From a virus (taxonomy: Duplodnaviria; Caudoviricetes), in IMG/VR virus record IMGVR_UViG_3300002966_000020, positions 1-47,171 of that record: a stretch of 47,171 nt of DNA; one strand, written 5' to 3'. A model generated the notes under the pieces. That model saw only the letters and a program-made list of their open reading frames with translations, was not told where the DNA came from and ran no database searches. The first letter of the stretch is position 1. Every line of letters begins with the position of its first letter. The position numbers and the translations under genes are program-made. Below, piece by piece: positions 5,687 to 39,460 of this stretch.

Positions 5687-6037
5687 GTGAACTACCTCGC
5701 CTTGTAGAAGGCAGGGCTTCCTGCTTCACAGCATAATGGCTTTTTAGGTATCCCTTTCGAGATACGGTCATCCACCAGAGCATACTCCACAGGCTTGAAG
5801 TCGGGCTGTTCCATCCCTACTTTGTATAAGTTTATAGATGCATTTACATCTCTATCATGATATGTCCTGCATTCAGGACAATTCCAATACCTATCAGACA
5901 GTTTCAATTGTTTGCGTTTATATACACACATTACAGAGTTTGGAGCTTGGATAGAATCTGTCAACTACGATAAGAGTTTTTCCATACCAATCTGCTTTAT
6001 ACTCTAAGTATCTAATAAATGTTCCAAATCCGCTGTC
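5687..6037 (-). mobile_element. tnpB: IS200/IS605 remnant: frameshifted 3' end of tnpB plus right end
   Basis: FIRYLEYKADWYGKTLIVVDRFYPSSKLCNVC, frameshift near 5925, then LSDRYWNCPECRTYHDRDVNASINL (zinc ribbon + RuvC-III). Ends in hairpin CCTGCCTT-CTAC-AAGGCGAGG then TAGTTCAC, a typical IS605 right end. Confidence 0.85.
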
Positions 6038-6406
6038 TATTTGCTCATCAACCAGCTGTGTAAGTATTTTATATGCCTTGCTCTTGCTCACAGAATCATT
6101 AGCAAATAATACTTTGATGCGGAAAAGATATTGTGCAATCTCCTGAATTTTTGTTTTTGTCTCATCACTAAAGCCAAACAGTTCTTTCAATATCTCAAGC
6201 GATACATATATATTCACCGGAAGGTTTGGTCGGGATACTTTGTCTGAATACAATACAGAAAATACTGTTTCATCAATCCGGCAAAATACATCCTCGTAAA
6301 ATCCTTTTGCCCAGCTTTTCTCATATCTCTTTCTTAAATTCTCAAGCAGTATATTCTTCTCAGAGAAAAGCTCTGGTATTTCATGGACTCTGTTTTCTTT
6401 AAACAA
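6038..6406 (-). pseudogene. N-terminal fragment of a DDE-type (IS1182/IS5-like) transposase with an internal deletion, fused in frame to the tnpB remnant
   Basis: MFKEN...SWAKGFYEDVFCRIDETVFSVLYSDKVSRPNLPVNIYVSLEILKELFGFSDE resembles a DUF772-type transposase N-terminus; no catalytic DDE core remains. Confidence 0.65.
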
Positions 6407-11806: not shown

Positions 11807-12877
11807 CTATATAAACTCATCTAAATCGATTAACTCGATTTCATCAGTTTGGGTTAAGCGCTCCTGTTGCTTTTTATTTAGAAATCGTGCTTCATCCCTT
11901 TTTAGATTTTTAAGACGGGATTGTATGATTTTAGGGTAATCAAGACCAGAAGTAAATCGGGTAACTATAACACCGTCATTAACTGCTTTACTCTGGAACA
12001 TACCTAAACGTGAGATAGCATTTCCGTGTTTTTGTTTTATAATGCTAAATATATTAATCGCAACATGATTATACAACGCCGTATTTAGTGGGGTATCAAT
12101 ACAACATAAGTACGATGTAGATTTTTTATAATCTAAACCTTGAATCAAACAAGGTTCAAAAATCCTTTCTTGTATAACGGTTGTATCTAACGATAGTGTA
12201 GAATCAGGAAGGTATATTACTCCAATGTCACATATACCTTTATGTGTGTGCAGTAATCTAAATACCTCTTGCTGGTCTATGGAACCCATTCCTGCAAGGC
12301 TTGTTTTTCCTACATCATACACATTATCTAAACTAGTTAACATGTTAACAATATGTGTATTAACGTTAGACCAGAAATGTTTATGTCCAACCGAAAGTTT
12401 GTCTAATAAATATTGATTATCTGCTAGAATAATATAGCTTGCTTGATTTTTTATATCTTTCAATGTTTTTAATGCATTAGATGTTGCAAGAATATCTAAC
12501 ATTTGAAGGGGCAAGGTAAGGAAAACGCCCGCTTTTGTAATATTTAGTTCCTGTGCTATTTCTAGCATGAAAGGTATTACACCACCACCTGTTCCACCTC
12601 CAGCACCGCCAAGAAATAAAACCGATTGTGATTCTTTAGCAACCGTTTTCAATAGCTTTACTAGTTGTGTACGGTTCTGCTCAGCCAGTTGTCGACCTTT
12701 TAAAGGTGAACCGCCCGTACCATTTGTATCAATCATGCAGTGCTTTTCAGAACTTATAGCATCATGGCTATCCGTATTTATATAATACACATTATAACCC
12801 CGTTCCTGAAACTCAAGAGCAAGTCTTGTACCGCACTGACCAACACCTATAATTGTACCAAATACTGATTCTTTCAT
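11807..12877 (-). CDS. tubulin/FtsZ-family GTPase (PhuZ/TubZ-like)
   Basis: GVGQCG, INTD, GTGGSP, tubulin signature GGAGGGTGGG, ILADN and T7-loop-like SIDQQE. Confidence 0.88.
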   Translation of the reverse strand: MKESVFGTIIGVGQCGTRLALEFQERGYNVYYINTDSHDAISSEKHCMIDTNGTGGSPLKGRQLAEQNRTQLVKLLKTVAKESQSVLFLGGAGGGTGGGVIPFMLEIAQELNITKAGVFLTLPLQMLDILATSNALKTLKDIKNQASYIILADNQYLLDKLSVGHKHFWSNVNTHIVNMLTSLDNVYDVGKTSLAGMGSIDQQEVFRLLHTHKGICDIGVIYLPDSTLSLDTTVIQERIFEPCLIQGLDYKKSTSYLCCIDTPLNTALYNHVAINIFSIIKQKHGNAISRLGMFQSKAVNDGVIVTRFTSGLDYPKIIQSRLKNLKRDEARFLNKKQQERLTQTDEIELIDLDEFI

Positions 12878-16113: not shown

Positions 16114-16600
16114 TTCTCACCTTAAATTCTTCTAGAAATTCAGTAAGTAGTAATATCATATAATTCTTCTCATCTGGCCTTTTCAGTAAGATATATTTTT
16201 TCTCATCTGTATATAATTTATTTAACTTTTCACAATGTAATATAACTGACTTATTAAACGGTAATATATCAACACAAGAGTATAAATCAACATTTAAAAT
16301 AATGTTTTCTGGAATAACTACAAAATCAATTTTGGGTTGATGTTTACTATCAATACTTACTGATAATACTGGAGTTTTAAGGTACGTTAGTGCTTGTTTT
16401 TCAATTTTCTGTAAAACAGCATACTCTAAATCATAATAAGGTTTTTCTGTTATCTTGGCTTCAAACAGAAAATTATCTGTAGTAACATCTCCTTTAGCGT
16501 ACCATACACAGCCACTACCTTTTTGGACTTTACCCCCAACAGATAAAGCAAGCATATTTTCACTCTTCTTTGACTTCTTGCGTTTCATGTATGGTTTCAT
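16106..16600 (-). CDS. PD-(D/E)XK Holliday junction resolvase-like nuclease
   Basis: E...GSG...KGDV...FEAK pattern; coupled to recA. Confidence 0.75.
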   Translation of the reverse strand: MKPYMKRKKSKKSENMLALSVGGKVQKGSGCVWYAKGDVTTDNFLFEAKITEKPYYDLEYAVLQKIEKQALTYLKTPVLSVSIDSKHQPKIDFVVIPENIILNVDLYSCVDILPFNKSVILHCEKLNKLYTDEKKYILLKRPDEKNYMILLLTEFLEEFKVRNG

Positions 16601-17961
16601 TAGAAACCTCTTACTTTGAAGTACAAATCTCTTAACAAACTTGAGTTTGTTCGGTGGGCATGCATTAATTCATTAAGTCCATGAAAAGATTTGCCGTTAA
16701 CTTTATAAAATGAACCTGCTTTCTCAATAACTCCTTGTGAGACTGCAAGTTGTATAATTTCCCTTACATGATCAATACTTCCTGTATGCATTGTACCACA
16801 AGGAGTTGTTGCAAAGTAGTAATCATACTCACCAAATCTCATAGGAAGGGAAAGTTTGTTTTTCTCAATCTTTAACCTTACACGCTGACCATATGTAACA
16901 TCTTGTGCACTTGAAGCTTCTATACCAACATCTTTTAAGTAAGAAACTCGTTTTAACTCAATTGCAACTGAGATATGATGTTCTAGTGCTCTACCTCCAC
17001 TATATGTAGGTGCAGAAGCATATGGACCTAAATTTTCCCTAACCTGCGAAACAATAAATAAAGAAGGTTTGAAAGCTTCTTCTGGATTTTCAAGATCATG
17101 CGCAGAGTAACCTGCACATATCTGTCGCATTAGTAACCCATTGATTTTTGCTTCCTTCCCCATTGTTTCCTGATCACTATCTCGTTCTTTAATAGTGCGA
17201 GGAATGGCTGCTTGTATTGAATCCCAAATAATACCATCAACTTCATTTGATTGTAAAAACATCTTTACAGTATCAATTCCTTCTTCAGTATCTTCGGGTT
17301 CTGCAACAAGTAATTCTTCATCAAGTATACCACATGATCTTAAGTAATCTAATGTACTTGTTTTCTGCTTTAAAACCTCATTTGTTTGTATATTCTTAAG
17401 AAACTTTTCAAGGTCTTTTAATTCTAACTTCTCTTCTTCACTTATATTTTTTAATGAAGATAAAAGAGTGTGCCTTTCAAGTTTTTCTTTATAATCATCA
17501 GCATCAATAACTTCTCCTGTACTTCCATTAACATATAATACTTCAGAAACTACCCCTGATTTTGCTTCTTCTAGCGCTAGTGACCTTTCATAATCTAAGA
17601 TTAGAAAAATACGCTTGCGTGATTCTGAGCACTTACATAACTTGTAACCCATTACATCTATTAGAAATTGTGATTTCTTGTCATCGCTTGAAGGTGGAAT
17701 AACACCGTTACAATTACGACATAATCTTTGGTTATACGCAATAAGTTGATTTAAATGTGCATTCTTCCCTGCACTCTTTTGCCCATAAAGTAAATGTATA
17801 CGTTTATATACAACACCTCCACCTAATAAGTTATCTAAGTAAATTGAACCAGAAAAATAACGCTTCAAGTGCATTGCACTTGCTTTTGATAATGTTGTAA
17901 TTCTTATTGCTTTCTTTTCTTTGTTAATTTTAGAAACAACATCTAATGATCTTACATCCAT
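16600..17961 (-). CDS. recA: RecA/UvsX recombinase with two insertions
   Basis: SGSIYLDNLLGGG, YGQKSAGKN, DYERSL, IIWDS, SQVRE, SGGRALEH, KNK. Confidence 0.9.
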   Translation of the reverse strand: MDVRSLDVVSKINKEKKAIRITTLSKASAMHLKRYFSGSIYLDNLLGGGVVYKRIHLLYGQKSAGKNAHLNQLIAYNQRLCRNCNGVIPPSSDDKKSQFLIDVMGYKLCKCSESRKRIFLILDYERSLALEEAKSGVVSEVLYVNGSTGEVIDADDYKEKLERHTLLSSLKNISEEEKLELKDLEKFLKNIQTNEVLKQKTSTLDYLRSCGILDEELLVAEPEDTEEGIDTVKMFLQSNEVDGIIWDSIQAAIPRTIKERDSDQETMGKEAKINGLLMRQICAGYSAHDLENPEEAFKPSLFIVSQVRENLGPYASAPTYSGGRALEHHISVAIELKRVSYLKDVGIEASSAQDVTYGQRVRLKIEKNKLSLPMRFGEYDYYFATTPCGTMHTGSIDHVREIIQLAVSQGVIEKAGSFYKVNGKSFHGLNELMHAHRTNSSLLRDLYFKVRGF

Positions 17962-18306: not shown

Positions 18307-19269
18307 CTAGAAAAGTGACGTTCCTTCTACTATAGTATGTTTACTTGTACTTTCTGCAACTTTTCTGAAAACATACAAGTTTGCAGCAACACGTCCACTT
18401 GGATTATCTACAAATAAATCACGAGGTGTTAAAGGAAGGAGTTTGCATAAGAACCTAATATATGCATCAATTTGTTTAACAAATCCAGGACGGACTTCTT
18501 CATAATATTTGTAACCTCCTGAAGAAAATAATTTTCTTGGCGATGTATAAACTTGAAATGCACTGTATACTGGCGCTTCTGGATCCATAACAACTTGTCG
18601 CTTGTTATCTAGTGGTAGCAATAACCCACCATATACAGCAATCATAAACCACGAAATTGAGTCAACACTGAACCAAGGATAATGTCGCATAAGATATGAT
18701 GATGTTACAGCAAACCCATGTGTTCGCATTGATCTAGGTATATGCTTATATGTTTCATCTAACCATAATTCCCTTTGCTTTGTTGTTGCATCGTTAGAGG
18801 GTGAAACTCCTATATATGTACCTCCATAACTAAGTATCTTGTATAGCTGAGTGATAGGTTCTCCTTGATGGAACACATGTATAACATTATTAAAACCTTC
18901 ATTAAGCATGATTTCATAATTCTTTAAACCTTGATCTGCTGCTTCTATTACTTGGTCATATGTTACCTTTTCACCTCGTTTACCAGGTATTACGTCTAGG
19001 TTCACAAAATACAATTCTTCAAATAAAGAACCATACTTGGATTGAAATTCTTTTAAAAACTTTATATAATCAGATAAAACAATCACCTCACCAGAGTTCC
19101 ATGCAGAAAAAGCACCACTATCTACAATTAATCGCACAGGATGTTCTTTTGCATAATTTGTAATAACCTCAAGTTGTTCTGGATAGTGGTACGAACCTAA
19201 CATATCCTTATACTTAAAGTATCTTAACATGTTAATGTATCGTATGGAACCACTTAACACTAAACGCAT
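18307..19269 (-). CDS. dpdA: TGT-fold 7-deazaguanine DNA transglycosylase (phage DpdA-like)
   Basis: LIVDSGAFSAW, NLDVIP, HVFHQGE, HGFAVT, SVDSISW match the TGT-like barrel; sits next to preQ0/preQ1 synthesis genes. Confidence 0.75.
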   Translation of the reverse strand: MRLVLSGSIRYINMLRYFKYKDMLGSYHYPEQLEVITNYAKEHPVRLIVDSGAFSAWNSGEVIVLSDYIKFLKEFQSKYGSLFEELYFVNLDVIPGKRGEKVTYDQVIEAADQGLKNYEIMLNEGFNNVIHVFHQGEPITQLYKILSYGGTYIGVSPSNDATTKQRELWLDETYKHIPRSMRTHGFAVTSSYLMRHYPWFSVDSISWFMIAVYGGLLLPLDNKRQVVMDPEAPVYSAFQVYTSPRKLFSSGGYKYYEEVRPGFVKQIDAYIRFLCKLLPLTPRDLFVDNPSGRVAANLYVFRKVAESTSKHTIVEGTSLF

Positions 19270-19344
19270 AAATGCTCTCCGACAATGATTTATATTATAT
19301 ATTATATGACAAGTCTAACAAAAGTTTTAAAAAATTAATATAAG

Positions 19345-20535
19345 TTACTGAAAAATTTGTCGTTTATACTGCTGAATTTCTTTTTTCCTATCATATTTAT
19401 ACTTACCATAGGGGTCATAGATACGGATAGGATTAATATCAATTCCACCTCGTCTTGTATAAAATAATCTTACACGCAACCATACAGGATCAAGTGAACG
19501 TATCAGATCATATGAAATTCGTTCACAGCATTCTTCATGAAATTCCTGATGATTACGGTACGAAACAAGGTAGCGATGCAAATCTTCAGGTTTCACAATT
19601 TTTTCCTTAGGTAAATATTCTATATATGCAACTGCCCAATCAGGTAAACCTGAAAACCTGCAATTACTTTTAAAACTTCTAGTAACAAATTTCTGTACAG
19701 GAGGTTTACGTACAGAAGATTTATAAGGAGATAGTTCAACAGGAATTGAACCTGTATATGTATAAACAAAATCTCTTGTATCAAGTTTATCTAAATTGAA
19801 ATAAGATTTTAAAGGCTTTTGTATTATTGATAAATCAGGTGGGTTTAACAATACATCTACTCTCGGAGCCCTTAGGGCATGTTTCAAATCATTAGAAATA
19901 ATCTTCACAAAATCTGCTGGTACAGATTGATTAAATGAGTTAAGATAAAGTTTAAGTGACTTACTTTCAACAATAGACTCTGATGTACTATCATAGATAA
20001 TGCGTATCTGAGATGTAGTCGGTTTACCTGTAGATGTAAGAGTTGAAAACTCATATGCATTCCATATGTCCACACCCTCCAATGGAAATGCATCAACATT
20101 ATATCCAATACTTTTACGTACAGGTCCTCTGTTAATTGAATACAACAAAGAAGGTGTATATGTAGAAATATAATTCGTATTTGCACCTAAACCAGATTCC
20201 TGTGCTTGTAATATCTCAAGTATCTTATCCAGATCTTTTTGTGCTTCTTTATATGAAATAGTGTTAGAAAGTAATGAAAATACTTTCTTTAAACCACACT
20301 TTAAACATAAGCACTCAATCCAGTTTTCCCATAACTTATCATAAATCCAAAAAGCAATTTCATTCTCAGTATACTTATCAAGTATTCTAAGATCTACAGT
20401 TGAGATTAGTTTTGCTAGTCCTTGTTTACTATACTTATAAAAAGGAATAAAAGATGTGCGAATACTAGCACCACAGTGCTTACACTTATACCCTTGTTTT
20501 CTTAGTGCTTTATACTTAGCATCCATACTATACAC
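19345..20535 (-). CDS. queF: preQ0 reductase QueF (bimodular type) with an extra N-terminal Cys4 domain
   Basis: DIWNAYEFS, QueF motif VESKSLKLYLNSFN, catalytic KSNC...PDWA, FHEECCERI, YTRRGGIDINP. Confidence 0.92.
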   Translation of the reverse strand: MYSMDAKYKALRKQGYKCKHCGASIRTSFIPFYKYSKQGLAKLISTVDLRILDKYTENEIAFWIYDKLWENWIECLCLKCGLKKVFSLLSNTISYKEAQKDLDKILEILQAQESGLGANTNYISTYTPSLLYSINRGPVRKSIGYNVDAFPLEGVDIWNAYEFSTLTSTGKPTTSQIRIIYDSTSESIVESKSLKLYLNSFNQSVPADFVKIISNDLKHALRAPRVDVLLNPPDLSIIQKPLKSYFNLDKLDTRDFVYTYTGSIPVELSPYKSSVRKPPVQKFVTRSFKSNCRFSGLPDWAVAYIEYLPKEKIVKPEDLHRYLVSYRNHQEFHEECCERISYDLIRSLDPVWLRVRLFYTRRGGIDINPIRIYDPYGKYKYDRKKEIQQYKRQIFQ

Positions 20536-20537
20536 CT

Positions 20538-21164
20538 CTATCTTGAAAAATCAGATATACGTTTTAAACTTAAAAGAAACTCATTTCTTGTTTCTTGTTC
20601 TATAAAACATCCATGTATCTCAGATGTAATACATGTTGAATTTACCTGTTGTGATCCACGGCATTGAATACAATTGTGAATACCCCTCACAATTACAATA
20701 CACCCTTTAGGTTTTACATATTCAACAAATGTATTAATAATTTCTTTTGTAAAGGTTTCCTGTAGCATAGGTTGCTGTGCAAGTATTGTAATAAACCGAC
20801 TTACTTTAGATAACCCTATTGCAGTTTCTTCTGGTACATAACCAAAATCAATTGAATACTTTACAGGTAAGAAATGGTGAGGACATAACGAGAAGCATGT
20901 AATATCAGTCTGCGTCACAATTCCTTGATATGTAGTAGGAAATGATTTAGCAAAAATATCCTTAAGTTCTTTATCTCTGCCTAATCCTTGACACATTTCT
21001 ACATACATCTTTGCAATACGGTGTGGTGTTTCTATAAAATTAGGGTCGGATAAATTTAGTGTAGGAAATATCTCAGCTAATCCTTCTAATAATAATTTTG
21101 AACCCTGCTCCATCTTTGAAAAACCTTTTAAATCTAAATATTTTTTGTATGGCATATTAAACAC
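20538..21164 (-). CDS. folE: GTP cyclohydrolase I
   Basis: ETPHRIAKMY, SLCPHHFLP, GLSK, LQE, HNCIQCRG. Confidence 0.95.
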   Translation of the reverse strand: MFNMPYKKYLDLKGFSKMEQGSKLLLEGLAEIFPTLNLSDPNFIETPHRIAKMYVEMCQGLGRDKELKDIFAKSFPTTYQGIVTQTDITCFSLCPHHFLPVKYSIDFGYVPEETAIGLSKVSRFITILAQQPMLQETFTKEIINTFVEYVKPKGCIVIVRGIHNCIQCRGSQQVNSTCITSEIHGCFIEQETRNEFLLSLKRISDFSR

Positions 21165-21780
21165 TCCTTACTTTTGTAGTTGCACGTTTGATTGATGTAA
21201 CTTCAGATGCAAAATTATCAATAATCTTTCTACCTATAAACTCAACTAGATTTCTATCTAAAAAACTCTCATTTGATTCAGTTACATTATTCTGAATTTC
21301 ATACATTTCCTTAAGGCTTATGATTTTAAGTGGCATATTTGGTGTAGGTAGGATATTAACAGCCGTATGAATAAGACCTGAAAAGGTATTACCTGTTGCT
21401 ATAGATACACTGAGTTTATATAAATCTTTATCATTAGGGTTCTTATACATTAAATCATCACCTAATTGAATAAGTCGTGTACCGAATACACCAAGATTAT
21501 CTAGCACATCTTTGATAATTGTTACAAGCTTGCGCTGGTATAGAACAGTTGTTTCAAGATTAATATGGAATAATTCTACAATAAAGTTTAATGCAAGAGT
21601 TGATTTAATATAATCACATTGTAAGACATCTTCCATATCTACCATGTGTGTGGATACATCCATTGCGCCTATAAATGCTATAATGCAGTCACCTGGTTCA
21701 TTAGTTTGTTCATAACACCACAAACTTCTTAATTGACGACCATCATAAGGGAGTGTATGTGGTAAAAAACATGTTTGCAT
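21157..21780 (-). CDS. DUF366 family protein (biotin/lipoate-ligase-like fold)
   Basis: YDGRQLRSLW, MVDMEDV, FIVE, QRKL, GDDLMY, KLSVSIAT, IHTAVNI; the likely start is ATG 21780 after AAGGAG (track start 21801). Confidence 0.85.
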   Translation of the reverse strand: MQTCFLPHTLPYDGRQLRSLWCYEQTNEPGDCIIAFIGAMDVSTHMVDMEDVLQCDYIKSTLALNFIVELFHINLETTVLYQRKLVTIIKDVLDNLGVFGTRLIQLGDDLMYKNPNDKDLYKLSVSIATGNTFSGLIHTAVNILPTPNMPLKIISLKEMYEIQNNVTESNESFLDRNLVEFIGRKIIDNFASEVTSIKRATTKVRSV

Positions 21781-21803
21781 TACTAATCTCCTTACACTCA
21801 AGT

Positions 21804-22529
21804 TTACTTATTTAATATATCAGAAGTGGTCTTTATTTCAAGAGGATCATGTAATCCTGCTAATTTAAACCCTTCGCTTCTACTTTGACAAGAAGCACAC
21901 TGCATACAAGGTCGTTTGGTTCCTTTATAACATGTCCATGTATGTTCAAAAGGTACTTTAAGTTTAGCACCTAATTTAATAATCTCTGTCTTAGATAATT
22001 GTAGTAAGGGCGCATAAATAATAAATTTTGTATCTGTAGATTTACTGCCAAGGTTAATTGTTTTTTCTACAGAATCCAAAAATACATTTCTACAATCTCT
22101 GTATACAGCATAATCACTGTTATTTGTCCCAATTAAAATAAATAATTCCTTTGGATTTCTAAAATATGTATCTCCGAAAGCAGCAGCGAGTGTAAGAAGA
22201 AATGTGTTTCTAAAAGGTACAATGGAATTTTCCGCATTTTTTAAACGCCGTTTGTTCCCAGTCACAAGTAAATCAGATTTTACAACAGATGTTAAGTCAA
22301 ACGTTATCTCATAGAAAGGAACTTTTAACAACTTACATTGACGCTTTGCACAAGCATATTCTTTTTTGTTATGGTTAGAACCATAATGTATATATAGACC
22401 AATAACATTCATTTGAAATACCTTAACAGCCTGGTGTAGTACAACAGTAGAATCAATTCCGCCAGAAAGTACAACAACAGCTTTCTTCCCAGCTAATTTT
22501 TTACTTGCAACTTTTTCATGTTTATTCAT
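21804..22529 (-). CDS. queC: 7-cyano-7-deazaguanine synthase
   Basis: PP-loop LSGGIDS, VPFRN, YRDCR, TWTCY, CMQCASC. Confidence 0.95.
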   Translation of the reverse strand: MNKHEKVASKKLAGKKAVVVLSGGIDSTVVLHQAVKVFQMNVIGLYIHYGSNHNKKEYACAKRQCKLLKVPFYEITFDLTSVVKSDLLVTGNKRRLKNAENSIVPFRNTFLLTLAAAFGDTYFRNPKELFILIGTNNSDYAVYRDCRNVFLDSVEKTINLGSKSTDTKFIIYAPLLQLSKTEIIKLGAKLKVPFEHTWTCYKGTKRPCMQCASCQSRSEGFKLAGLHDPLEIKTTSDILNK

Positions 22530-22552
22530 ATATTTTCTCCTTTATGATAAAA

Positions 22553-22963
22553 TTATATAAACCATTCTGCATACGCAGTAGGTGTTTCATATAAAGTAAC
22601 TTTGCAACATTGAAGACCGTATTGTTTTAATGCTAAATCAAGCTGTTTACCAATCCACACAACAAGATTTTCACATGTAGGTGGCTGTGGTAATTCAGGA
22701 TTATCATTTAAAAATGTATGATCTAGTTTTTGTATGATATGCTTATCTACAATTTCTTTCAAAACAGAAAAGTTAATTAGCATACCATTTTCAGGAATAG
22801 TATTTGAATCATCTAAAGCACACACAGTTACACGAAGAATTGCATTATGTCCATGAACATTTGTACAGTGGCCATATAGATCTTTGTTTACTGAATCAGA
22901 GTACTTCTCACAGTATAACTTGTGTCCGTACGAAAAAGAAAATTCTTTAGTGATTGTAATCAT
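22553..22963 (-). CDS. queD: 6-carboxy-5,6,7,8-tetrahydropterin synthase
   Basis: GHKL, CTNVHGHN, LDHTFLN, PTCENL, ETPT. Confidence 0.93.
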   Translation of the reverse strand: MITITKEFSFSYGHKLYCEKYSDSVNKDLYGHCTNVHGHNAILRVTVCALDDSNTIPENGMLINFSVLKEIVDKHIIQKLDHTFLNDNPELPQPPTCENLVVWIGKQLDLALKQYGLQCCKVTLYETPTAYAEWFI

Positions 22964-24252: not shown

Positions 24253-27200
24253 TTATTTCTCCCATCTATCTGAAATTGATACATCCGCCTTAAGATCAAT
24301 TGTAATCTTTGGCAAATCTATTGTCATGTGTTCAACAAGTTTTTGTGCAACTTCTTCAACTTCGTCTTCTTTACACTCAACTAGTATACAGTCATGAACT
24401 ATACCTACTTGTAGTGCATCATGACCAGATTTATCTAGATAGGCTTGATTTTTTATCAAGCCAAAACCTGTGCAATCTGATGCAGTACCTTGTATTGGAG
24501 TATTCACAGCTTGTCGCAATGCACGCATTTTTGTTGCAGTATCACTACTGAAAACACTAGGTAAGTACCTTCTTCTACCATGCACAGTTTCAACATATCC
24601 ATGCTTTTGACAAAATCGCATTATATCATCAATCCATCTTTTTACATCTGGATATGATTGATAAAATCTATTAATAAATTCAGTTGCACGATCTAAATCA
24701 ATATTCAAACTTGTTGCTAATGAGTTAGCAGACATTTGGTACACAACACCAAAATTAATAGAGTTGTGACTGATGAAACCTGCTGTATTGTAATGATTAC
24801 CTTCTGGTACAAATAAATCGTATACTTGTTGTTTAGTTTCTTGCAATGATTCTACCTTCATAATCATATAATCTAGATATTGATTAACTTTATAATATTG
24901 AATACCTTTATTACATTTAATATCACTCATCTTCTTTCTTTCAGTAGAAATAACATGCATTTCTTCAATAACTTGTTCAATATCGTCAATTTGAAATTTC
25001 AATACGAAAGAATTAGTTGATTTAGTTTCAAATGAAGAAGCAATTCCAAAATTAAGTAATAACAGTAATTGAATATCTTTAAGCAATTGGGGTTCTATAT
25101 GTATAAGACATCTAGCTTCACTATTCCATAAACTATACATAACTATTTCAAGAAATGCTGCACAGGATTGTTTATCAATACGAAATACAAACTCAGGTAT
25201 CTTACTTTCTTGTAATACTTCTAAAACCTCAAGTAATGTATAAAATGTTTTATCATATGCAAATGATACAACATAACCATGTGACTTTTTATAATAAGAA
25301 AGAAACCCTTTTAATCCTGCTGCATTCAAATACTTTAAGAATAATTCATATATAGTCTTATCTTTTGCTTCAAAAATCACCTGTAAGTTCTTATTTACTA
25401 AAACACCATGTGTAAAAATAAAACCTAGAATACACGATTCAGCTATTCCTATTGTAGAAAATGCAGTAGAAAACATGGGAGGAATAACTCTACTATTGTG
25501 ATTAATTTCCATAGAAACAACAACATTGTTAGAATAGTTAGGAACACATCCCTGCAATACAACTTTATCTTCTACAGTTAATTCTTGTAATTCTTTATCT
25601 ATAAGTTGTTTTGTTAATGCATCTATTACATAGATTTTATGTGTCCGACTACCTGTTAAAGTAAAACCATTTTCAAGTGTTACAGTTATACAATCAACAA
25701 GACCACCATTATAAAACTGTGCTGCTTTTACAAATCTACCATCTGGATGTATGACATTGACATTTTGTATATCAACAAACTGCTCGGGTTGTCCTGGAGT
25801 AGTACAGATATCTTCTATACGTAGAAAACCTGATTCAACAGGAATTCTAGTACCTTGTGCTACACACTTTGCTGTAGTACGTAGTTCTTGATGCTTTGTA
25901 TCAGATTTGTTAAATTTTTCAACTGGTATGCCAAACATATTACAAGCTGTCAACGTGTGAAAGTCTACATCAGATTTAAATGCGGCCTGCATCTTTTTAT
26001 CTCCACTAACCATTGCAAGTATTCTAAGTTCCATCTGACTCAGGTCAGCTGCAATCAGTTTATAACCAGGTCTTGCCACAATCATATTTCGTATCTTATT
26101 ATCTCTTGGAACATTTTGTAGATTAGGATTAGCACAACTTAAACGCCCCGTAGCAGTTGTATGTTGTAAATACTGTGGATGTATGCGTTGTGTTAATGGA
26201 TGTATAAGTTTTTTAAATCCTTCAAGATAAGTTGTTGTTTGTTTTCGCAACAAACGATATTCTAATATTAAGTTAACTAAAGGTAATTGTGATTTTTCTG
26301 ATAACAAATGTAATGCTTCCTCATCAGTTGAAGGTGCGCCAGAAGGTGTTTTCTTTACTACAGGTAACTTTAACGTCTTATATAATAAATCTCGTAATTG
26401 TGTAGATGAATCAATATTAATATCCTTCCTTGTATGCTTTTTAAATTCTTTTACTATCTCCTCAATACGAGTGTTATTTTCTTTAATACAATTTTCTATA
26501 TATTCAAGATCTACCATAATACCATTTTCTTCAAGACGCATAAGTGCGTATGTGTAAGGTATAATAAGATTATAATATACATCTTCTTTCTGTTCTTGTT
26601 TTATCATTTGATTAAGCTTTTGATAACATCTATATGTTACATCAGCATCCATTGCAGAATAATACTGTAATGGAGTTAGGCCTAAACTATCTACTTTACT
26701 TTTAAACATTTTATAAGGCATGTTAGATATTTGTAATAGTTTCTCTGAGTATTGCAGATCAACCTGATTTTCTTTCTTTGAAATTATTGGGTTACTTTCT
26801 TTTGTATCTCGTACTAAAACCCGTTTAGGAGTTTGTCCAATATTTAAAAGTTTTTTTCTTGATTCTTCCCTTTCTAGGTCAAGTGTATTGATATCCGAAA
26901 ATTTTACCATAATACTTTCAATAACTTCTTCTATGTAAGCGGAATCATGATCTGTGCAATCAATTACATAATCCTGTTTTATATAAGTTTCTTGCTGAGG
27001 TGTACTAGATCCTTGAACTGCACTTTCATTTGTCTGTTGTATTTCATTAGATAAATTTGTTTCATGCTCAGTTTCTTCAGTTTTTTCTCTAGCTTGTTTT
27101 GTGCGTTTCTTTTGAAATTCTCCTATACCATGTTCTAAAATATCTTTGTAGCCACCTTCTTTAGTAAATATATATGACATTGTATCTAGTTTATATAGTG

Positions 27201-28134
27201 ATGTATCGGCTCCTTCAAACTGCATCGTCAGCAAGTGATAAGCAAGCATTGTATCAAATCTAAATCCTTTTACATCGAAACCACACCCATGTAAGAACTT
27301 GATGTCAAATTTCCCATTATGAAATATTTTTGTAATCTTTTCGTCAGCAAGTATCTGAGAAAAAAGATTAAGGTGGGGTAACATATTAGCCCATTCAATA
27401 TGTACCCCTTCACCTTCTTTTATACATAGTGAAATATCCGTAATCTTGTCAATTAAAAAATCTAATCCTGTTGTTTCTAAGTCAATTGCTACCACATTTG
27501 ATTTCTTTACTTGTTCTAGATATTTCTGTATTTCATATGTATGTGACAATGTTTTAGGTTGTGATGGTATATATCTACATAACGGTTTTCCAAGTGTATC
27601 TTGCACAAGTGCTAGGTCACTATAAAATTCTTCATAATACATTGAATCTGAATGTCGTAACAAGAATGCAGGGTGATATGTAGCAACAACATATGCATTT
27701 AGATAACTAGCATAATATACTCTACCCCGTGCTAAGTTTTGTTGTAATTTAAGTGGAAGTAACTGTCTCAATGCAACATTACCTAGTGCCAAGATAACTT
27801 TAGGTTGCATTTCTTGTATAATTTCATATGTAAAAGGTTTACAGGATTGTATTTCAAGTTGTGTTGGTGTACGATTACCTCCTTTTTCATCGATTGGCCT
27901 GCATTTCACAGCATTAGTAATAAAGTAATCAATATTCATTTGATCTAATGCTTCATTCAATATTTTTCCTGCTGCCCCGATAAATGGAGTACCTTGCTCA
28001 TCTTCATTTCTACCTGGGGCTTCACCAACAATTAGTAATTTAGAATGTAAATTTCCCCTACCCCTAATACAAGGGTTCTTTGCAGTTTTGTATAACCTGC
28101 ATTTCTCACAAAATGTAGTTAGTATCATATACAA
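24253..28134 (-). CDS. polA: family A DNA polymerase with N-terminal family-4 uracil-DNA glycosylase, 3'-5' exonuclease and an intein
   Basis: UDG: CEKCRL, GEAPG, NAVKCRP, TYHPA. Exonuclease: DLETTG, HNGKFD, YSAMDAD. Polymerase: TATGRLS, NLQNVP, DLSQMELR, K/SINFGVVY, NTPIQG, VHD. Confidence 0.95.
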   Translation of the reverse strand: MYMILTTFCEKCRLYKTAKNPCIRGRGNLHSKLLIVGEAPGRNEDEQGTPFIGAAGKILNEALDQMNIDYFITNAVKCRPIDEKGGNRTPTQLEIQSCKPFTYEIIQEMQPKVILALGNVALRQLLPLKLQQNLARGRVYYASYLNAYVVATYHPAFLLRHSDSMYYEEFYSDLALVQDTLGKPLCRYIPSQPKTLSHTYEIQKYLEQVKKSNVVAIDLETTGLDFLIDKITDISLCIKEGEGVHIEWANMLPHLNLFSQILADEKITKIFHNGKFDIKFLHGCGFDVKGFRFDTMLAYHLLTMQFEGADTSLYKLDTMSYIFTKEGGYKDILEHGIGEFQKKRTKQAREKTEETEHETNLSNEIQQTNESAVQGSSTPQQETYIKQDYVIDCTDHDSAYIEEVIESIMVKFSDINTLDLEREESRKKLLNIGQTPKRVLVRDTKESNPIISKKENQVDLQYSEKLLQISNMPYKMFKSKVDSLGLTPLQYYSAMDADVTYRCYQKLNQMIKQEQKEDVYYNLIIPYTYALMRLEENGIMVDLEYIENCIKENNTRIEEIVKEFKKHTRKDINIDSSTQLRDLLYKTLKLPVVKKTPSGAPSTDEEALHLLSEKSQLPLVNLILEYRLLRKQTTTYLEGFKKLIHPLTQRIHPQYLQHTTATGRLSCANPNLQNVPRDNKIRNMIVARPGYKLIAADLSQMELRILAMVSGDKKMQAAFKSDVDFHTLTACNMFGIPVEKFNKSDTKHQELRTTAKCVAQGTRIPVESGFLRIEDICTTPGQPEQFVDIQNVNVIHPDGRFVKAAQFYNGGLVDCITVTLENGFTLTGSRTHKIYVIDALTKQLIDKELQELTVEDKVVLQGCVPNYSNNVVVSMEINHNSRVIPPMFSTAFSTIGIAESCILGFIFTHGVLVNKNLQVIFEAKDKTIYELFLKYLNAAGLKGFLSYYKKSHGYVVSFAYDKTFYTLLEVLEVLQESKIPEFVFRIDKQSCAAFLEIVMYSLWNSEARCLIHIEPQLLKDIQLLLLLNFGIASSFETKSTNSFVLKFQIDDIEQVIEEMHVISTERKKMSDIKCNKGIQYYKVNQYLDYMIMKVESLQETKQQVYDLFVPEGNHYNTAGFISHNSINFGVVYQMSANSLATSLNIDLDRATEFINRFYQSYPDVKRWIDDIMRFCQKHGYVETVHGRRRYLPSVFSSDTATKMRALRQAVNTPIQGTASDCTGFGLIKNQAYLDKSGHDALQVGIVHDCILVECKEDEVEEVAQKLVEHMTIDLPKITIDLKADVSISDRWEK
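24763..25866 (-). mobile_element. intein (368 aa) in polymerase motif B, with degenerate LAGLIDADG endonuclease
   Basis: TTAK|CVAQGTRI...TGSRTHKI...VYDLFVPEGNHYNTAGFISHN|SINFG; splicing restores KSINFGVVY. Confidence 0.92.
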
Positions 28135-35129: not shown

Positions 35130-35704
35130 TTATATAGTATAATATAGCTTAGTGTTCCTTGTTGGTGTTTATTATGATGTATACCTCTATATATAATTAT
35201 ATCATCAAAGTTGAAATTCTTAACCTCAAAATCTTGTTCTTTTTTCTTCTGCTGAAATAATACTTGATAAATGAATAGATCAGTAAGCTTTTCACTCGTT
35301 GAGGCACAATATACCATATCCTTAATTTTCACTATTATAGACAAATAACTTAGTAACGCGTATAACTCTCCTTTTATTTTAGAATCTTGTATAAGTGAGG
35401 TGTTTATGTCTTCTAGAGCTGTTTGCAACGCATACTCTGCATCACCTTTTAGTAAAAGTACATTAGGATGATAGAATAACCATGTATATACTTCTTCTAC
35501 TGTGAATGGAGGAGATTGTAGTTGAAAAAACTCACCACAACTTATACATACATCAGTATCTGTAAATTTATTTGCGTATAATATCTGCTCAAGCATATCA
35601 ATCTGAGAATAAACATGAGAGATGATAAATACTGTATTGTAACCAGACCATATAGGATTATGTATATAATTATGAAAATTATTAAGTAACATAGTTACTC
35701 TCAT
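35126..35704 (-). CDS. degenerate calcineurin-like metallophosphoesterase
   Basis: FIISHVYS / CISCGEFF / LLKGDAEY align to DxHG / GDxxDRG / GNHE, with the metal ligands substituted. Confidence 0.5.
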   Translation of the reverse strand: MRVTMLLNNFHNYIHNPIWSGYNTVFIISHVYSQIDMLEQILYANKFTDTDVCISCGEFFQLQSPPFTVEEVYTWLFYHPNVLLLKGDAEYALQTALEDINTSLIQDSKIKGELYALLSYLSIIVKIKDMVYCASTSEKLTDLFIYQVLFQQKKKEQDFEVKNFNFDDIIIYRGIHHNKHQQGTLSYIILYK

Positions 35705-36954
35705 ACAAAAATATACGCTTTGCCCGCACCTGAAATTCCACCTGGGTTAGCATAATACGCACCTATAATTGCTACGTTTCCTGAAATTGAGACAGAGCAG
35801 CCGAAGAAGTCATTCGTTGCTTTGTCAGAAGCTATCAAAATAGCTTCCTGTATCCACGAGGTTCCATTGTATCTAAAAATGTAGGCTTTGCCCGCATGTG
35901 AAATTCCACCTGGGCTAGCAAAATACGCACCCACAATTGCTACATTTCCTGAAATTGAGACAGAGCAGCCAAAGTAGTCAGTTGCTGCTTTATCAGAAGC
36001 TGTCAAAATAGCTTCCTGTATCCACGAGGTTCCATTGTATCTAAAAATGTAGGCTTTGCCTGCAGCTGAAATTCCACCTGGGTCAGCAATAATCGCACCT
36101 ACAATTGCTACATTTCCTGAAATTGAGACAGAGTTGCCAAACTGGTCATACGCTGCTTTGTCAGAAGCTGTCAAAATAGCTTCCTGTATCCATGAGGTTC
36201 CATTGTATCTAAAAATGTAAGCTTTGCCCGCATTTGAAAGTCCACCTGTGTCAGCAAGATACGAACCTATAATTGCTACGTTTCCTGAAATTGAGACAGA
36301 GTAGCCGAAGTTGTCATACTCTGCTTTGTCAGAAGCTGTCAAGATTTGAAACTCACTGTTTGGAACTGCATTAATGTTGAAACTCACTGCACTTGACCAT
36401 TGTGAATACCTGTTATTTGAATCTTTATATCTGACTCTAATATAATATGTATTATCAGACGGCACTGTAATTTGAATTGAGGTTTTATTAGTTGTGTTAT
36501 TCAAACTTTGAAAAACAATGTTTGAAAAAGCAGAATCAGTTGCAACTTGCCAATCGGAAGAAACATGCAGTGAACCAGAAGAAGACGAAAATGGAGAAGA
36601 AGTTGCAGTGAATGTAAAGTCATTGATAGTCAAACCTGTAGTTGGATACGTAATTGAGGGTGTTTCTGGTACTATTACTACTCGTATGATATAGGAATAT
36701 ACTAAACCACTCCTTTTCAATGTAAATGTATAATCACCTTGAGTAGTACCTATAGGTATCGACCAAGAAATAGTGTTATCAGTTATTGTGGCACTACCAA
36801 ATGGAACTTCTATTTCATATGTATAAAGATTACTGTAGTCTGTAATAGTATATTCAACTGTACTACCTGTTTCAAGTTCTACTGGACCTGCTAAGTTTGG
36901 TGCTGTGCTTTCAAGTCCTTGTTTCCATTTATTATAGATCATAGTTTTATTCAT
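35701..36954 (-). CDS. Ig/FN3 + FG-GAP repeat protein (putative virion adhesin or receptor-binding protein)
   Basis: SDWQVATDSAFSNIV...YYIRVRYKD...SQWS (FN3-like), then about four 56-aa FG-GAP blades (FGxSVSISG...GA...AGKAYIF); likely start MNKTM at 36954 (track start 36990). Confidence 0.85.
   Translation of the reverse strand: MNKTMIYNKWKQGLESTAPNLAGPVELETGSTVEYTITDYSNLYTYEIEVPFGSATITDNTISWSIPIGTTQGDYTFTLKRSGLVYSYIIRVVIVPETPSITYPTTGLTINDFTFTATSSPFSSSSGSLHVSSDWQVATDSAFSNIVFQSLNNTTNKTSIQITVPSDNTYYIRVRYKDSNNRYSQWSSAVSFNINAVPNSEFQILTASDKAEYDNFGYSVSISGNVAIIGSYLADTGGLSNAGKAYIFRYNGTSWIQEAILTASDKAAYDQFGNSVSISGNVAIVGAIIADPGGISAAGKAYIFRYNGTSWIQEAILTASDKAATDYFGCSVSISGNVAIVGAYFASPGGISHAGKAYIFRYNGTSWIQEAILIASDKATNDFFGCSVSISGNVAIIGAYYANPGGISGAGKAYIFV
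35707..36345. repeat. about 3.8 tandem copies of a 168-bp unit
   Basis: GCTTTGCC recurs at 35717, 35885, 36053 and 36221; units are near-identical and visibly more GC-rich than the flanks. Confidence 0.97.
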
Positions 36955-36967
36955 AATAACACCCCAC

Positions 36968-39460
36968 TTATGAACATTTTGATGTACCACAATTACGACA
37001 CGTTAGGCAACCTTCTGTATATGTCAATGGTGTATGACAATTTGGACATTCAAGTGTAGACTGAGCACCAGAATCTACATACTTTTTTAATGCACGCAAA
37101 ATTGATTTTGAAAAATCAGTCACATCCCCTTTTGCTTTACTTAACTGATCAATAATAAATGTTATAGGTACACCATATCGTAATGACGTAGAAAGTAACC
37201 TTGTAATACTTTCATAAGCAGCACAATCAAAGATTTTAGAGATATCTTTTACAATAACTTGACCATCATACTCAAATGAGTATTTTCCTTTTCCTACTTT
37301 AACTATCATTCCCTCTTTGATAGTAGAGGGTATATCGACAAGGTCAACCTTTCCTGCAAACACTTCATAAGGTTTATTGTTATGTAAACCAACAAACACC
37401 ACCCACTGCTCACCTTTTATCATAACTTTATGCACATGGCAGGGAAGTGCTTTAGGCCTTTCTAGTGCTTGTACAGCTATATGTTTGCTCTTATCATCTG
37501 TAACTTGTATTACACCTGACATTGTACCAAATCGGAAAGTTGTTAGGCCTTTAATGTAACCTGTTTCATATGCTGCTATATACACATTCTTAAAATCTTC
37601 GTACGGATAATCTTCTGGAACATTAACTGTTTTACTAATAGAGCTATCGACATACTTTGCAAATATTTTCATAACATGGATATGGTCTTCAACTTTTAAG
37701 TTGTTTATAGACTTTGCATAATCAGCATCTTTGTCAAATGAATCACCTAATACTAACATACTATAATCATAGACAATTTCCTCACGTTGTAAACCGGAGT
37801 GTTGAGTGATTTTATATACATATCCGTCAGTATGGGTTTTATATAATACAAACTGATCTCCTTCAAGTCTCCACTTCCAACCATTACTTACTGTATACTT
37901 CTGATGTGCCCAATCAATTGATTCAGGCAATACTAAATCAAGGGGTGCAGTACCTACAATAACATTTCTAACATATGAAAAATCAATAACTGGTTCTAAT
38001 CCACCTGATACATTATTAGCAAGTATACCTGTATTTCCTGTAGGAGCAACAGTTGTTAGATGAGAGTTTCGTAGTCCATACTTTCGTATCATAGAACATG
38101 TTTCTTCTGTTAGTGCATTTTTTACAAACTTTGACTGCAAGAATTTCTTAGCTTCAAATAAAGGAAAAGGCCCTTTTTCTTTAGCAAGTAATGCTGATGA
38201 TTGATATGCTGTATTAGTAACAAACTTACACAGTTTTTCTGTTAACTCCAAACACTTTGTCGAACCATAAGGTATCTTTAAAATAACTAATGCTGACCCG
38301 TATCCTGTATAACCTAACCCTATACGACGTTTGTTTTTAGCTTGCTCATAGTGTATTTCTAATGGAAACTGCGATAAGGAATTAACAGAATCAAGAAAGC
38401 GAACCATGAAAGGAATATCTTCAGCAAGTTTATCATAATCAAAATCAGTTTTATTACTATTTACATACTGTGTGAGGTTGATGTGACCTAGACAACAAGC
38501 ACCTCCTACAGGTAGCCCTTGTTCACCGCAAGGATTAGTAGAAGAGATATATTCACCTGTATAATACAGATTATTCAACTCATTGTATCTATCAATAAAA
38601 ATAACTCCAGGCTCATTACGTTTATATGTAGATCGTATGATTAATTCCCACAGCTCATTAGCATCTTTAAATTCATGCCATACATTGATAGGGTAACCTT
38701 TGCTAATCCATTTTTCAATGTTTCCATCCCATTCAGTTGAATATTTCTCAAAAGATGTTTCAGGAAAGATTAATTGCCAGGGTTTGTTATGCTTAACACA
38801 TTCTATGAACTTATCAGTTACAAGCACGGATAGATTGAATTTAGTAAGTACCCCAGGAGTTTGCTTAGCTGTAACAAACTCAACAATATCTGGGTGCCAT
38901 ACACTCATACAGGCAAGTTGTGCACCTTTTCTTACTTTATTTTTTCCAAGTTGTTGTTGTTTCTTTTTAATAACACCTGATGTAATAACAGCAGAAGAAG
39001 TGTCCCATAAGTTAAGCATTGTTACAGCACCAGGGCTTTCTGTACCTATTCCTTTAACAAAAGCACCTTTAGGTCTTAATACATCAACATTAAAACCGTA
39101 TCCACCTTCAGATTTCAGTATCTGTGCCTGTCGCTTTAAGCCTTCATAAATACCTATAATACTATCTGGATCATGCCCATACAAACCATCAACAAAACAG
39201 TTTACTAATGTAACACCATTAAGACCTGTACCAGCATTTGATAAGATCCTACCCCCAGGTAAAAATTTAAAAGAAAAGAGTAGTTCAAAATATTTTGATC
39301 TATACGTATCTACATCTTCTGGTTTTTCATCCTGTAACATGAACTCTACAACTCTCTTACATGTATCTTCATAACATGAATCATCTTGCCACTTATATGT
39401 ATCATACCATACATTATAAGAGATTCTTTGCATAAATTTATCAATATTAGTACTTTTCAT
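36968..39460 (-). CDS. nrdJ: class II (adenosylcobalamin-dependent) ribonucleotide reductase
   Basis: FLPGGRIL, NCFV, STNPCGEQ, CCLGHINL, RRIGLG, VAPTG, ISKTVN, C-terminal CPNC...EGC..C..CG.SKC; no beta-subunit gene nearby. Confidence 0.92.
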   Translation of the reverse strand: MKSTNIDKFMQRISYNVWYDTYKWQDDSCYEDTCKRVVEFMLQDEKPEDVDTYRSKYFELLFSFKFLPGGRILSNAGTGLNGVTLVNCFVDGLYGHDPDSIIGIYEGLKRQAQILKSEGGYGFNVDVLRPKGAFVKGIGTESPGAVTMLNLWDTSSAVITSGVIKKKQQQLGKNKVRKGAQLACMSVWHPDIVEFVTAKQTPGVLTKFNLSVLVTDKFIECVKHNKPWQLIFPETSFEKYSTEWDGNIEKWISKGYPINVWHEFKDANELWELIIRSTYKRNEPGVIFIDRYNELNNLYYTGEYISSTNPCGEQGLPVGGACCLGHINLTQYVNSNKTDFDYDKLAEDIPFMVRFLDSVNSLSQFPLEIHYEQAKNKRRIGLGYTGYGSALVILKIPYGSTKCLELTEKLCKFVTNTAYQSSALLAKEKGPFPLFEAKKFLQSKFVKNALTEETCSMIRKYGLRNSHLTTVAPTGNTGILANNVSGGLEPVIDFSYVRNVIVGTAPLDLVLPESIDWAHQKYTVSNGWKWRLEGDQFVLYKTHTDGYVYKITQHSGLQREEIVYDYSMLVLGDSFDKDADYAKSINNLKVEDHIHVMKIFAKYVDSSISKTVNVPEDYPYEDFKNVYIAAYETGYIKGLTTFRFGTMSGVIQVTDDKSKHIAVQALERPKALPCHVHKVMIKGEQWVVFVGLHNNKPYEVFAGKVDLVDIPSTIKEGMIVKVGKGKYSFEYDGQVIVKDISKIFDCAAYESITRLLSTSLRYGVPITFIIDQLSKAKGDVTDFSKSILRALKKYVDSGAQSTLECPNCHTPLTYTEGCLTCRNCGTSKCS

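Follow-up and report, generated by a model that had tools for sequence, protein, structure and literature searches.

The window, that is, the whole stretch of DNA analysed here, comprises a virus record of 47,171 bases, which is estimated to be 19% complete, so that the phage genome should measure about 250 kb; about 120 kb of this estimated length is covered for the window's phage group. The sequencing runs holding the region described below are labelled as hot-spring or microbial-mat metagenomes, and two scans for additional virus records of the same phage returned none. The window encodes DNA polymerase A, ribonucleotide reductase, primase, helicase, RecA, SbcCD-like proteins and a terminase-like protein, and gene W, the subject of this work, is placed within this replication module (Table 1). 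The DNA polymerase A gene (24253-28134) carries an N-terminal uracil-DNA glycosylase domain and an intein; a tubulin/FtsZ-family GTPase is encoded at 11807-12877, and a broken IS605/TnpB-like remnant with a Cas12f1-like TNB domain lies at 5692-6406.

Table 1. Features of the gene W region and the phage recombinase gene in window coordinates; on the minus strand the four repeat units start at 36345, 36177, 36009 and 35841.
Feature	Position	Strand	Basis
Gene W, 417 codons, ATG at 36954; putative Ig-like domain, FN3-like module and 3.8 FG-GAP blades	35701..36954	-	ORF, Pfam
N-terminal all-beta (putatively Ig-like) domain, specific to locus W	36676..36888	-	AlphaFold strands in residues 23-90, block pLDDT 68-86
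FN3/Ig-like module	36372..36663	-	blastn; weak PF25788 match, E=0.008; phrog_5287
FG-GAP blade 1, 56 codons	36178..36345	-	TRF, PF14312, AlphaFold
FG-GAP blade 2	36010..36177	-	TRF, unit alignment
FG-GAP blade 3	35842..36009	-	TRF, unit alignment
FG-GAP blade 4, stops after strand C, then stop codon	35701..35841	-	unit alignment
6-bp inverted repeat	35685..35699	.	inside next ORF; not counted as a DGR hairpin
Ribonucleotide reductase, upstream neighbour of gene W	36968..39460	-	Pfam
Phage RecA-family recombinase	16600..17961	-	PF00154, E=2e-24

Gene W and its propeller blades

The gene W protein begins with MNKTMIY, a start common to its relatives P0002 and P0015. Its N-terminal all-beta domain has no match in Pfam, and the name of an Ig-like fold is suggested by the AlphaFold model. 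The FN3/Ig-like module is 93% identical at the nucleotide level to a paralogue from the tail locus, occurs in two copies in the region L002, and matches the minor tail protein family phrog_5287 (E=3e-4 in W, 5e-14 for protein P0001); the AlphaFold model is poor over this module.

The repeats had been predicted to form an FG-GAP beta-propeller, and Pfam, AlphaFold and Foldseek all bear this out. TRF reports a 168-bp unit in 3.8 copies at 35707-36342, with 89% matches and 0 indels, and the FG-GAP_2 profile PF14312 matches four stretches of the protein over its cut-off (229 bits, E=4e-69). In the AlphaFold model the four-stranded blades reach pLDDT 89-98, their strands spanning codons 16-20, 23-28, 40-47 and 52-58, and integrin alpha propellers rank first in Foldseek at low TM-scores of ~0.4, for a partial ring. 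A sequence search for a solved structure of the gene W protein returned none.

Each of the four units carries hypervariable codons in which positions 1-2 vary, just as the original prediction had it. Its coordinates and its seven codon columns, plus a further GAG/GCG/GCA/ACG column, are all exact on the minus strand, and CAG is indeed the sole purine-ending cell (1/28). In blade 1, the variable codons 9-15 lie at 36301-36321 and the codons 29-38 at 36232-36261; when placed on the AlphaFold strands, the variable codons map to the D-A and B-C loops. In integrin propellers, the same two loops form the top, ligand-binding face. For WD40 propellers, the D-A and B-C loops are likewise given as the top, ligand-binding face in the available part of PMC1805685. 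Strand topology and the known geometry of propellers thus predict that the variable residues of gene W lie on one binding face.

The prediction went further and read an adenine-directed signature from these codons, as an A occurs in each of the 14 columns formed by their positions 1-2. This is true of the 14 columns but not of the units as a whole, where an A is present in 23 of the 32 variable columns and missing from the other 9; the seven codons are a choice made after the fact. When four bases per column were drawn from the 57 blades outside the window, a lenient null given that these allele pools are themselves A-rich, an A appeared in all 14 columns with P=0.12. The weak hairpin reported behind the array does exist, yet it lacks significance (z = -0.79; 43 of 200 shuffled sequences fold equally well) and falls within the opening codons of the following ORF, whose ATG is at 35704. 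Its sequence is absent behind the 9 other array ends. All ten arrays examined end at an identical point of the unit, after strand C.

Paralogous propeller genes and the probable exchange of blades

Scans of virus and metagenome contigs yielded ten distinct arrays with 61 distinct blades once duplicates had been removed. This set omits L026 (a duplicate of L024), L001, L016 and L022 (duplicates of W), L002 and L017 (the same as L021), L025 (the same as L019) and a blade remnant at L020:2099-2144. The four-blade W array is also found in L001 and L022, 100% identical across 10.6-10.7 kb, where the source may be the same reads as those of the window record. The final W blade carries differences at 35733 and 35735 in runs X6 and X9, and the coding strand has a T at each of these positions.

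The arrays belong to several genes of one phage. L022, which matches the window without a difference across 10.6 kb, shares a 60-kb contig with L024, an array of gene M, so that W and M reside in one genome; likewise, L018 (gene C) and L026 (gene M) lie together on another contig. Genes T, B and C form a tandem of three family paralogues in the tail module: L020 holds the end of one propeller gene followed by two more in tandem, the T gene stands behind baseplate and fibre genes in L021 and L023, and fibre and fibre-assembly matches lie downstream of C. L019 has two M genes in tandem as against one in L024. A reconstruction from contigs that overlap between assemblies would give the genome five or six propeller genes with more than 30 blades. 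L024:1113-6436 and L019:11503-16776 also hold a tandem array of five or six paralogous ORFs of 320-375 aa, with 78-84% nucleotide identity between some copies and no convincing Pfam match; this array adjoins a DUF2201 metallopeptidase/vWA-like gene on a contig that also carries gene W.

Among the nine tabulated arrays other than W, seven have seven blades, and proteins with the W-type N-terminus have 7 (P0002), 6 (P0003) or 2 (P0015). The repeat number, which the original prediction had proposed to check, thus does vary, with 2, 4, 6 or 7 blades behind the same N-terminus, counts that collapsed assemblies could have altered. Four blades are probably unable to close a ring alone; contraction of a seven-blade gene likely produced the four-blade W allele, and an oligomer or assembly collapse may also account for it.

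The position of T-B-C among baseplate, tail-fibre and fibre-assembly genes, along with weak PHROG matches, makes the adhesin proposed earlier probable. From this gene context, the propeller proteins are likely virion adhesins; for W itself, which sits in the replication module, virion display would follow from its paralogues, and the ligand of the propellers would presumably be found on the host surface. FG-GAP proteins are counted with adhesion proteins in giant-virus islands in the accessible text of PMC13620141, and distant relatives in cultured phages carry annotations as FG-GAP or virion structural proteins. Those of Vibrio phage nt-1, S-MbCM6 and S-TIM5 belong to the same repeat family, and several are annotated as virion structural, but they are only 28-41% identical. 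Another phage protein, of 3,977 aa (L049:1340-13270), has at least four FG-GAP arrays with an internal DNA identity of 74-84%.

The suggestion that the repeats recombine with one another is supported. All four gametes were present in 250 of 300 pairs of framework sites, and in 28 of the 44 pairs within 12 nt, counts to which recurrent mutation can add. The framework distance is 0.065 within W and 0.054-0.078 between W and the blades of T, B and C; the M arrays stand slightly apart (0.09-0.11) and keep a constant blade order between strains, and the overall range within and between arrays is 0.05-0.11. An 86-nt tract including seven variable codons is identical in blade 3 of the T gene of L023 and blade 1 of the M gene of L024, and 103 nt of window blade 2 (36031-36133) show one difference from a Logan contig of run X1 with an M-type context; both tracts could be assembly chimeras. 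Between strains, orthologous T genes are 87.8% identical beside a 9.5-kb flank of 98.5% identity, so that orthologous arrays differ by 12% where the flanks differ by 1.5%, and every blade differs. The variable codons are little linked across loci (7 of 45 pairs at p<0.05); silent sites are also unlinked, and the low linkage gives no support for a DGR over exchange. Blades of the five or six paralogues would thus form one recombining pool in which gene conversion and unequal crossover, as the presumed agents, homogenise the framework of near-identical 168-bp blades; the RecA-family recombinase of the window is a candidate agent for the exchange.

A more specific scheme is RT-free antigenic variation, in which W and M, located outside the tail module, would be blade reservoirs converted by the phage recombinase into the tail-displayed T-B-C adhesins. 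We regard it as rather doubtful; if true, it would provide a combinatorial, antibody-like receptor repertoire with complete turnover between strains only 1.5% apart. A history in which every propeller arose by recent amplification of a single blade, followed by differentiation under selection with no further exchange between genes, is very unlikely. FG-GAP propellers independently amplified from single blades are described in the available part of PMC9218822, and the M arrays, with their constant blade order and slight separation, would suit such a history, but an array's own blades resemble one another no more than they resemble blades at other loci, the four-gamete test fails at all distances, different loci have tracts in common, and T orthologues differ in each blade despite their 98.5% identical flanks. 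Assembly could also have produced most of the mosaic blades and blade numbers out of co-occurring strains: none of the Logan pieces listed spans an array, contigs often end inside arrays, and part of window blade 2 occurs in an M-type context in run X1. This we consider very improbable, as misassembly can shuffle alleles but not create them, every array is in frame, the W array is found in three records, and two assemblies agree on the M array (L024 and L026, 99.99%).

Probable selection on the variable codons

The variable codons, which were picked for this analysis after inspection of the data, have pN 0.52 and pS 0.21, as compared with 0.06 and 0.20 in the framework. A comparison of the M1a and M2a models on a fixed tree gave 2dlnL of 251 and omega of 5.1, with an M2a posterior of 1.0 for codons 10, 12, 15, 29, 30, 37 and 38, of 0.92 for codon 54 and of 0.85 for codon 9, values to be read with the caution that recombination inflates tree-based tests of selection (PMC4986451, in the part available). 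As combinations of alleles, 59 of the 61 blades are distinct. Simulated point mutation under omega of ~5 produced 10.4 position-1-2 pairs per codon against the 10.6 observed, and a third-base variation of 0.175 against 0.136. The simulation thus matches the observed number of alleles as well as the retention of the third base, and no template is needed to explain this retention. Codon 29 is extreme: it ends in T in 61 of 61 blades and shows 15 of the 16 NNT codons, and only 0.6-6.7% of the simulated codons with at least 11 pairs keep the third base so well. Over six variable codons, Tyr, Asn, Asp and Ser account for 212 of 366 residues, mostly through NAY and AGY codons. The AAY-like appearance of the variable codons is explained by binding loops that favour these four residues together with a third base held by the homogenised framework.

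Taken together, these data point to concerted evolution of paralogous propeller genes combined with diversifying selection on ordinary point mutations at the predicted binding face, a reading that we consider likely. While recombination would homogenise the framework, diversifying selection would retain point mutations at about eight codons per blade.

A second group of large phages has 174-bp FG-GAP blades that are 90% identical (L033:1-916 and L034:1-846). These vary at the same positions, include TGG alleles, have T at codons 12 and 15 where the window's phage has C, and show no change in 56 silent A cells. The differing third bases, the TGG alleles and the stable adenines indicate that variable alleles arose anew on the framework of each lineage.

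An undescribed, base-independent mutator targeted to positions 1-2 of the variable codons would explain why all four bases occur at 15 of 20 variable position-1-2 sites as against 1 of 24 fourfold silent sites, and why codons 10, 29 and 37 keep their third base in 59, 61 and 60 of 61 blades, above the simulation average. It is nevertheless a most unlikely agent: the variable codons have no shared sequence context, selection accounts for the way the variation tracks reading frame and predicted loops, the simulation fits the means, and a candidate enzyme is absent near the arrays.

Silent adenines and the search for a reverse transcriptase

In DGR copying, adenines of the template are miscopied while its other bases are copied faithfully. 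Over 22 template adenines, the BPP-1 reverse transcriptase misincorporates at 51.6% on average, with a range of 28-76% and 28-30% at the most resistant adenines (all from the available part of PMC7826257), and AAC prevails in natural DGR templates (PMC12875486, in part). An A in a DGR variable region derives from a template A, so that silent adenines should vary as well.

In these blades they do not, which contradicts the claim of adenine-directed hypermutation from AAY templates. In the 61 blades, only 12 of 600 silent adenine cells at fourfold sites are changed, as compared with 12/234 for C, 24/356 for T and 109/234 for G; at about 5%, 7% and 47% change for C, T and G, the ten A sites form the most stable class. 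The original prediction had itself remarked on invariant silent adenines, and rightly so: ten window positions are unchanged (0/39 cells), which has P ~3e-6 if misincorporation is 28%. All nine silent adenines of codons 8-35 are kept in 51 of 61 blades, where 3.2 would be expected at 28% and 0.09 at 52%, the blades not being independent. Even the A of codons 33, 35 and 37, within the variable cluster, is kept in 58/61 blades, and codon 37 varies as NNA, with its third A retained in 60/61. The framework contains 38 majority-A positions, including AAA/AGA codons in which mutated adenines could create stops. Non-adenine bases are not faithful either: at the seven codons, a purine third base occurs in 47 of 427 cells, impossible from AAY, in alleles that include TGG (20), CAG (8), AAG, AGG, ATG, AAA, CAA, GAA and others and that contribute the residues W, Q, K, M, E and R. 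The prediction held that unbiased third-position divergence would refute a DGR; this is not literally what we see, as third bases are conserved, but they are so whether A, C or T, and conservation regardless of the base is what homogenisation plus selection predicts.

The remark that no RT or template is visible also stands. RVT_1 is absent from the 50 window ORFs, from the three records of the phage's own group (G000-G002), from 89 ORFs around the paralogues and from 33 other FG-GAP virus records, none of them complete. Five terminase relatives gave no RT; the single complete one has no FG-GAP_2 and is hence uninformative. A regex for RT motifs had no match, the window and the surroundings of every array up to 10 kb contain no non-coding AAY copy of a blade, and a search of species genomes (genome_contigs) for blade copies gave 0 matches. 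Among the matches listed for runs X1 and X9 (12 of 22), the loose ends are array ends or blade-like. The 46-nt remnant downstream of gene B (L020:2099-2144) does not qualify as a template, as its own ATG precedes it and it reads CAC-TGT at codons 29-30.

The adenine test is independent of how complete the search for an RT or template is, and it allows us to conclude that gene W is not a DGR target: the predicted feature is real, and the mechanism assigned to it is wrong. That a DGR elsewhere in the phage or its host diversifies each blade from an AAY template is exceedingly improbable, for all that pyrimidine endings account for 27 of 28 cells in the window and 380 of 427 in the family, that codon 29 shows 15 of the 16 NNT codons, that linkage among variable codons is weak, that the search covers about 120 of about 250 kb and that DGR targets with several variable regions exist (PMC10907252, in part); against this stand silent adenines that are stable where at least 28-30% misincorporation applies, the impossible cells, and sequence in which no RVT_1, non-coding AAY copy or conserved hairpin or IMH behind the variable region was found. 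More generally, a pattern in which positions 1-2 vary and the third base is a pyrimidine is no DGR signature unless silent adenines vary too.

Relation to known systems

Concerted evolution with diversifying selection brings gene W closest to the NWD/HNWD genes (het-d, het-e) of Podospora anserina, whose 69 WD40 repeats behave as one pool, as described in the available part of PMC1805685. Both systems have a multigene blade pool (61 blades sampled here), few selected codons per blade in the d-a loop and the b-c turn, variation in repeat number and a high proportion of distinct combinations, 55/69 there (same source) and 59/61 here. High repeat identity across the family and exchange of repeats within and between genes are found here too, with possible chimeras among the latter, and so are a few codons with dN/dS >1 in top-face loops, by a test that recombination inflates. 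The systems differ in that the Podospora genes are fungal, with WD40 repeats and four selected codons, whereas the present ones are from a phage, with FG-GAP_2 repeats and seven or eight; W has an Ig/FN3-like stalk and no NACHT or HET domain, and an intracellular receptor there contrasts with a likely virion adhesin here. Pfam found no NACHT, NB-ARC, WD40, ANK or TPR domain in the W protein that would place it in the HNWD/NLR families. By analogy, gene W appears to work like the HNWD system without being a member of the HNWD family. The ANK, TPR and WD repeats of fungal NLRs share near-identical repeats, number polymorphism and a selected binding surface, and differ in fold family, organism and domain context (PMC4986451, part of the text).

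Repetitive beta-propellers, including FG-GAP/alpha-integrin ones and viral examples, likewise combine high blade identity with more non-synonymous than synonymous change, but in the accessible text of PMC9218822 they arise by independent amplification of single blades, whereas here blades are common to five or six genes and turn over between closely related strains. DGR systems such as BPP-1 share variation at positions 1-2 and a ligand-binding surface rich in Tyr, Ser, Asp and Asn (PMC7826257 and PMC12875486, both in part); here, however, no RT, template or hairpin was found, silent adenines are fixed, non-A third bases change, and the variation is spread across all blades of several genes. 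In the literature searched, mostly papers without subscription and with PMC10907252 and PMC7159879 among them, we found neither a phage case of pooled, selected propeller blades nor a DGR combined with FG-GAP.

Gene W and its paralogues are a phage variant of an already known mechanism, since fungal non-self receptors already follow the blade-pool strategy. Pooling blades among propeller genes would offer phages a second route to DGR-like receptor diversity without a reverse transcriptase, and a constant scaffold that leaves seven or eight positions per blade free to vary would amount to a natural binder library.

Two further observations concern the composition of the phage DNA. CpG is depleted across the whole window (observed/expected 0.49), with TpG at 1.20 and CpA at 1.15, and the four silent sites that vary most within the blade are each the G of an NCG codon; cytosine methylation and deamination may underlie both. 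A cluster for the 7-deazaguanine pathway (PTPS, QueC, DUF366, GTP cyclohydrolase I and QueF) lies at 18307-22963, with a 320-aa ORF without annotation at 18307-19269 in the same region, and a QueE-like radical SAM gene is found at L024:11729-12475. The 7-deazaguanine genes suggest that the DNA of this phage is modified.
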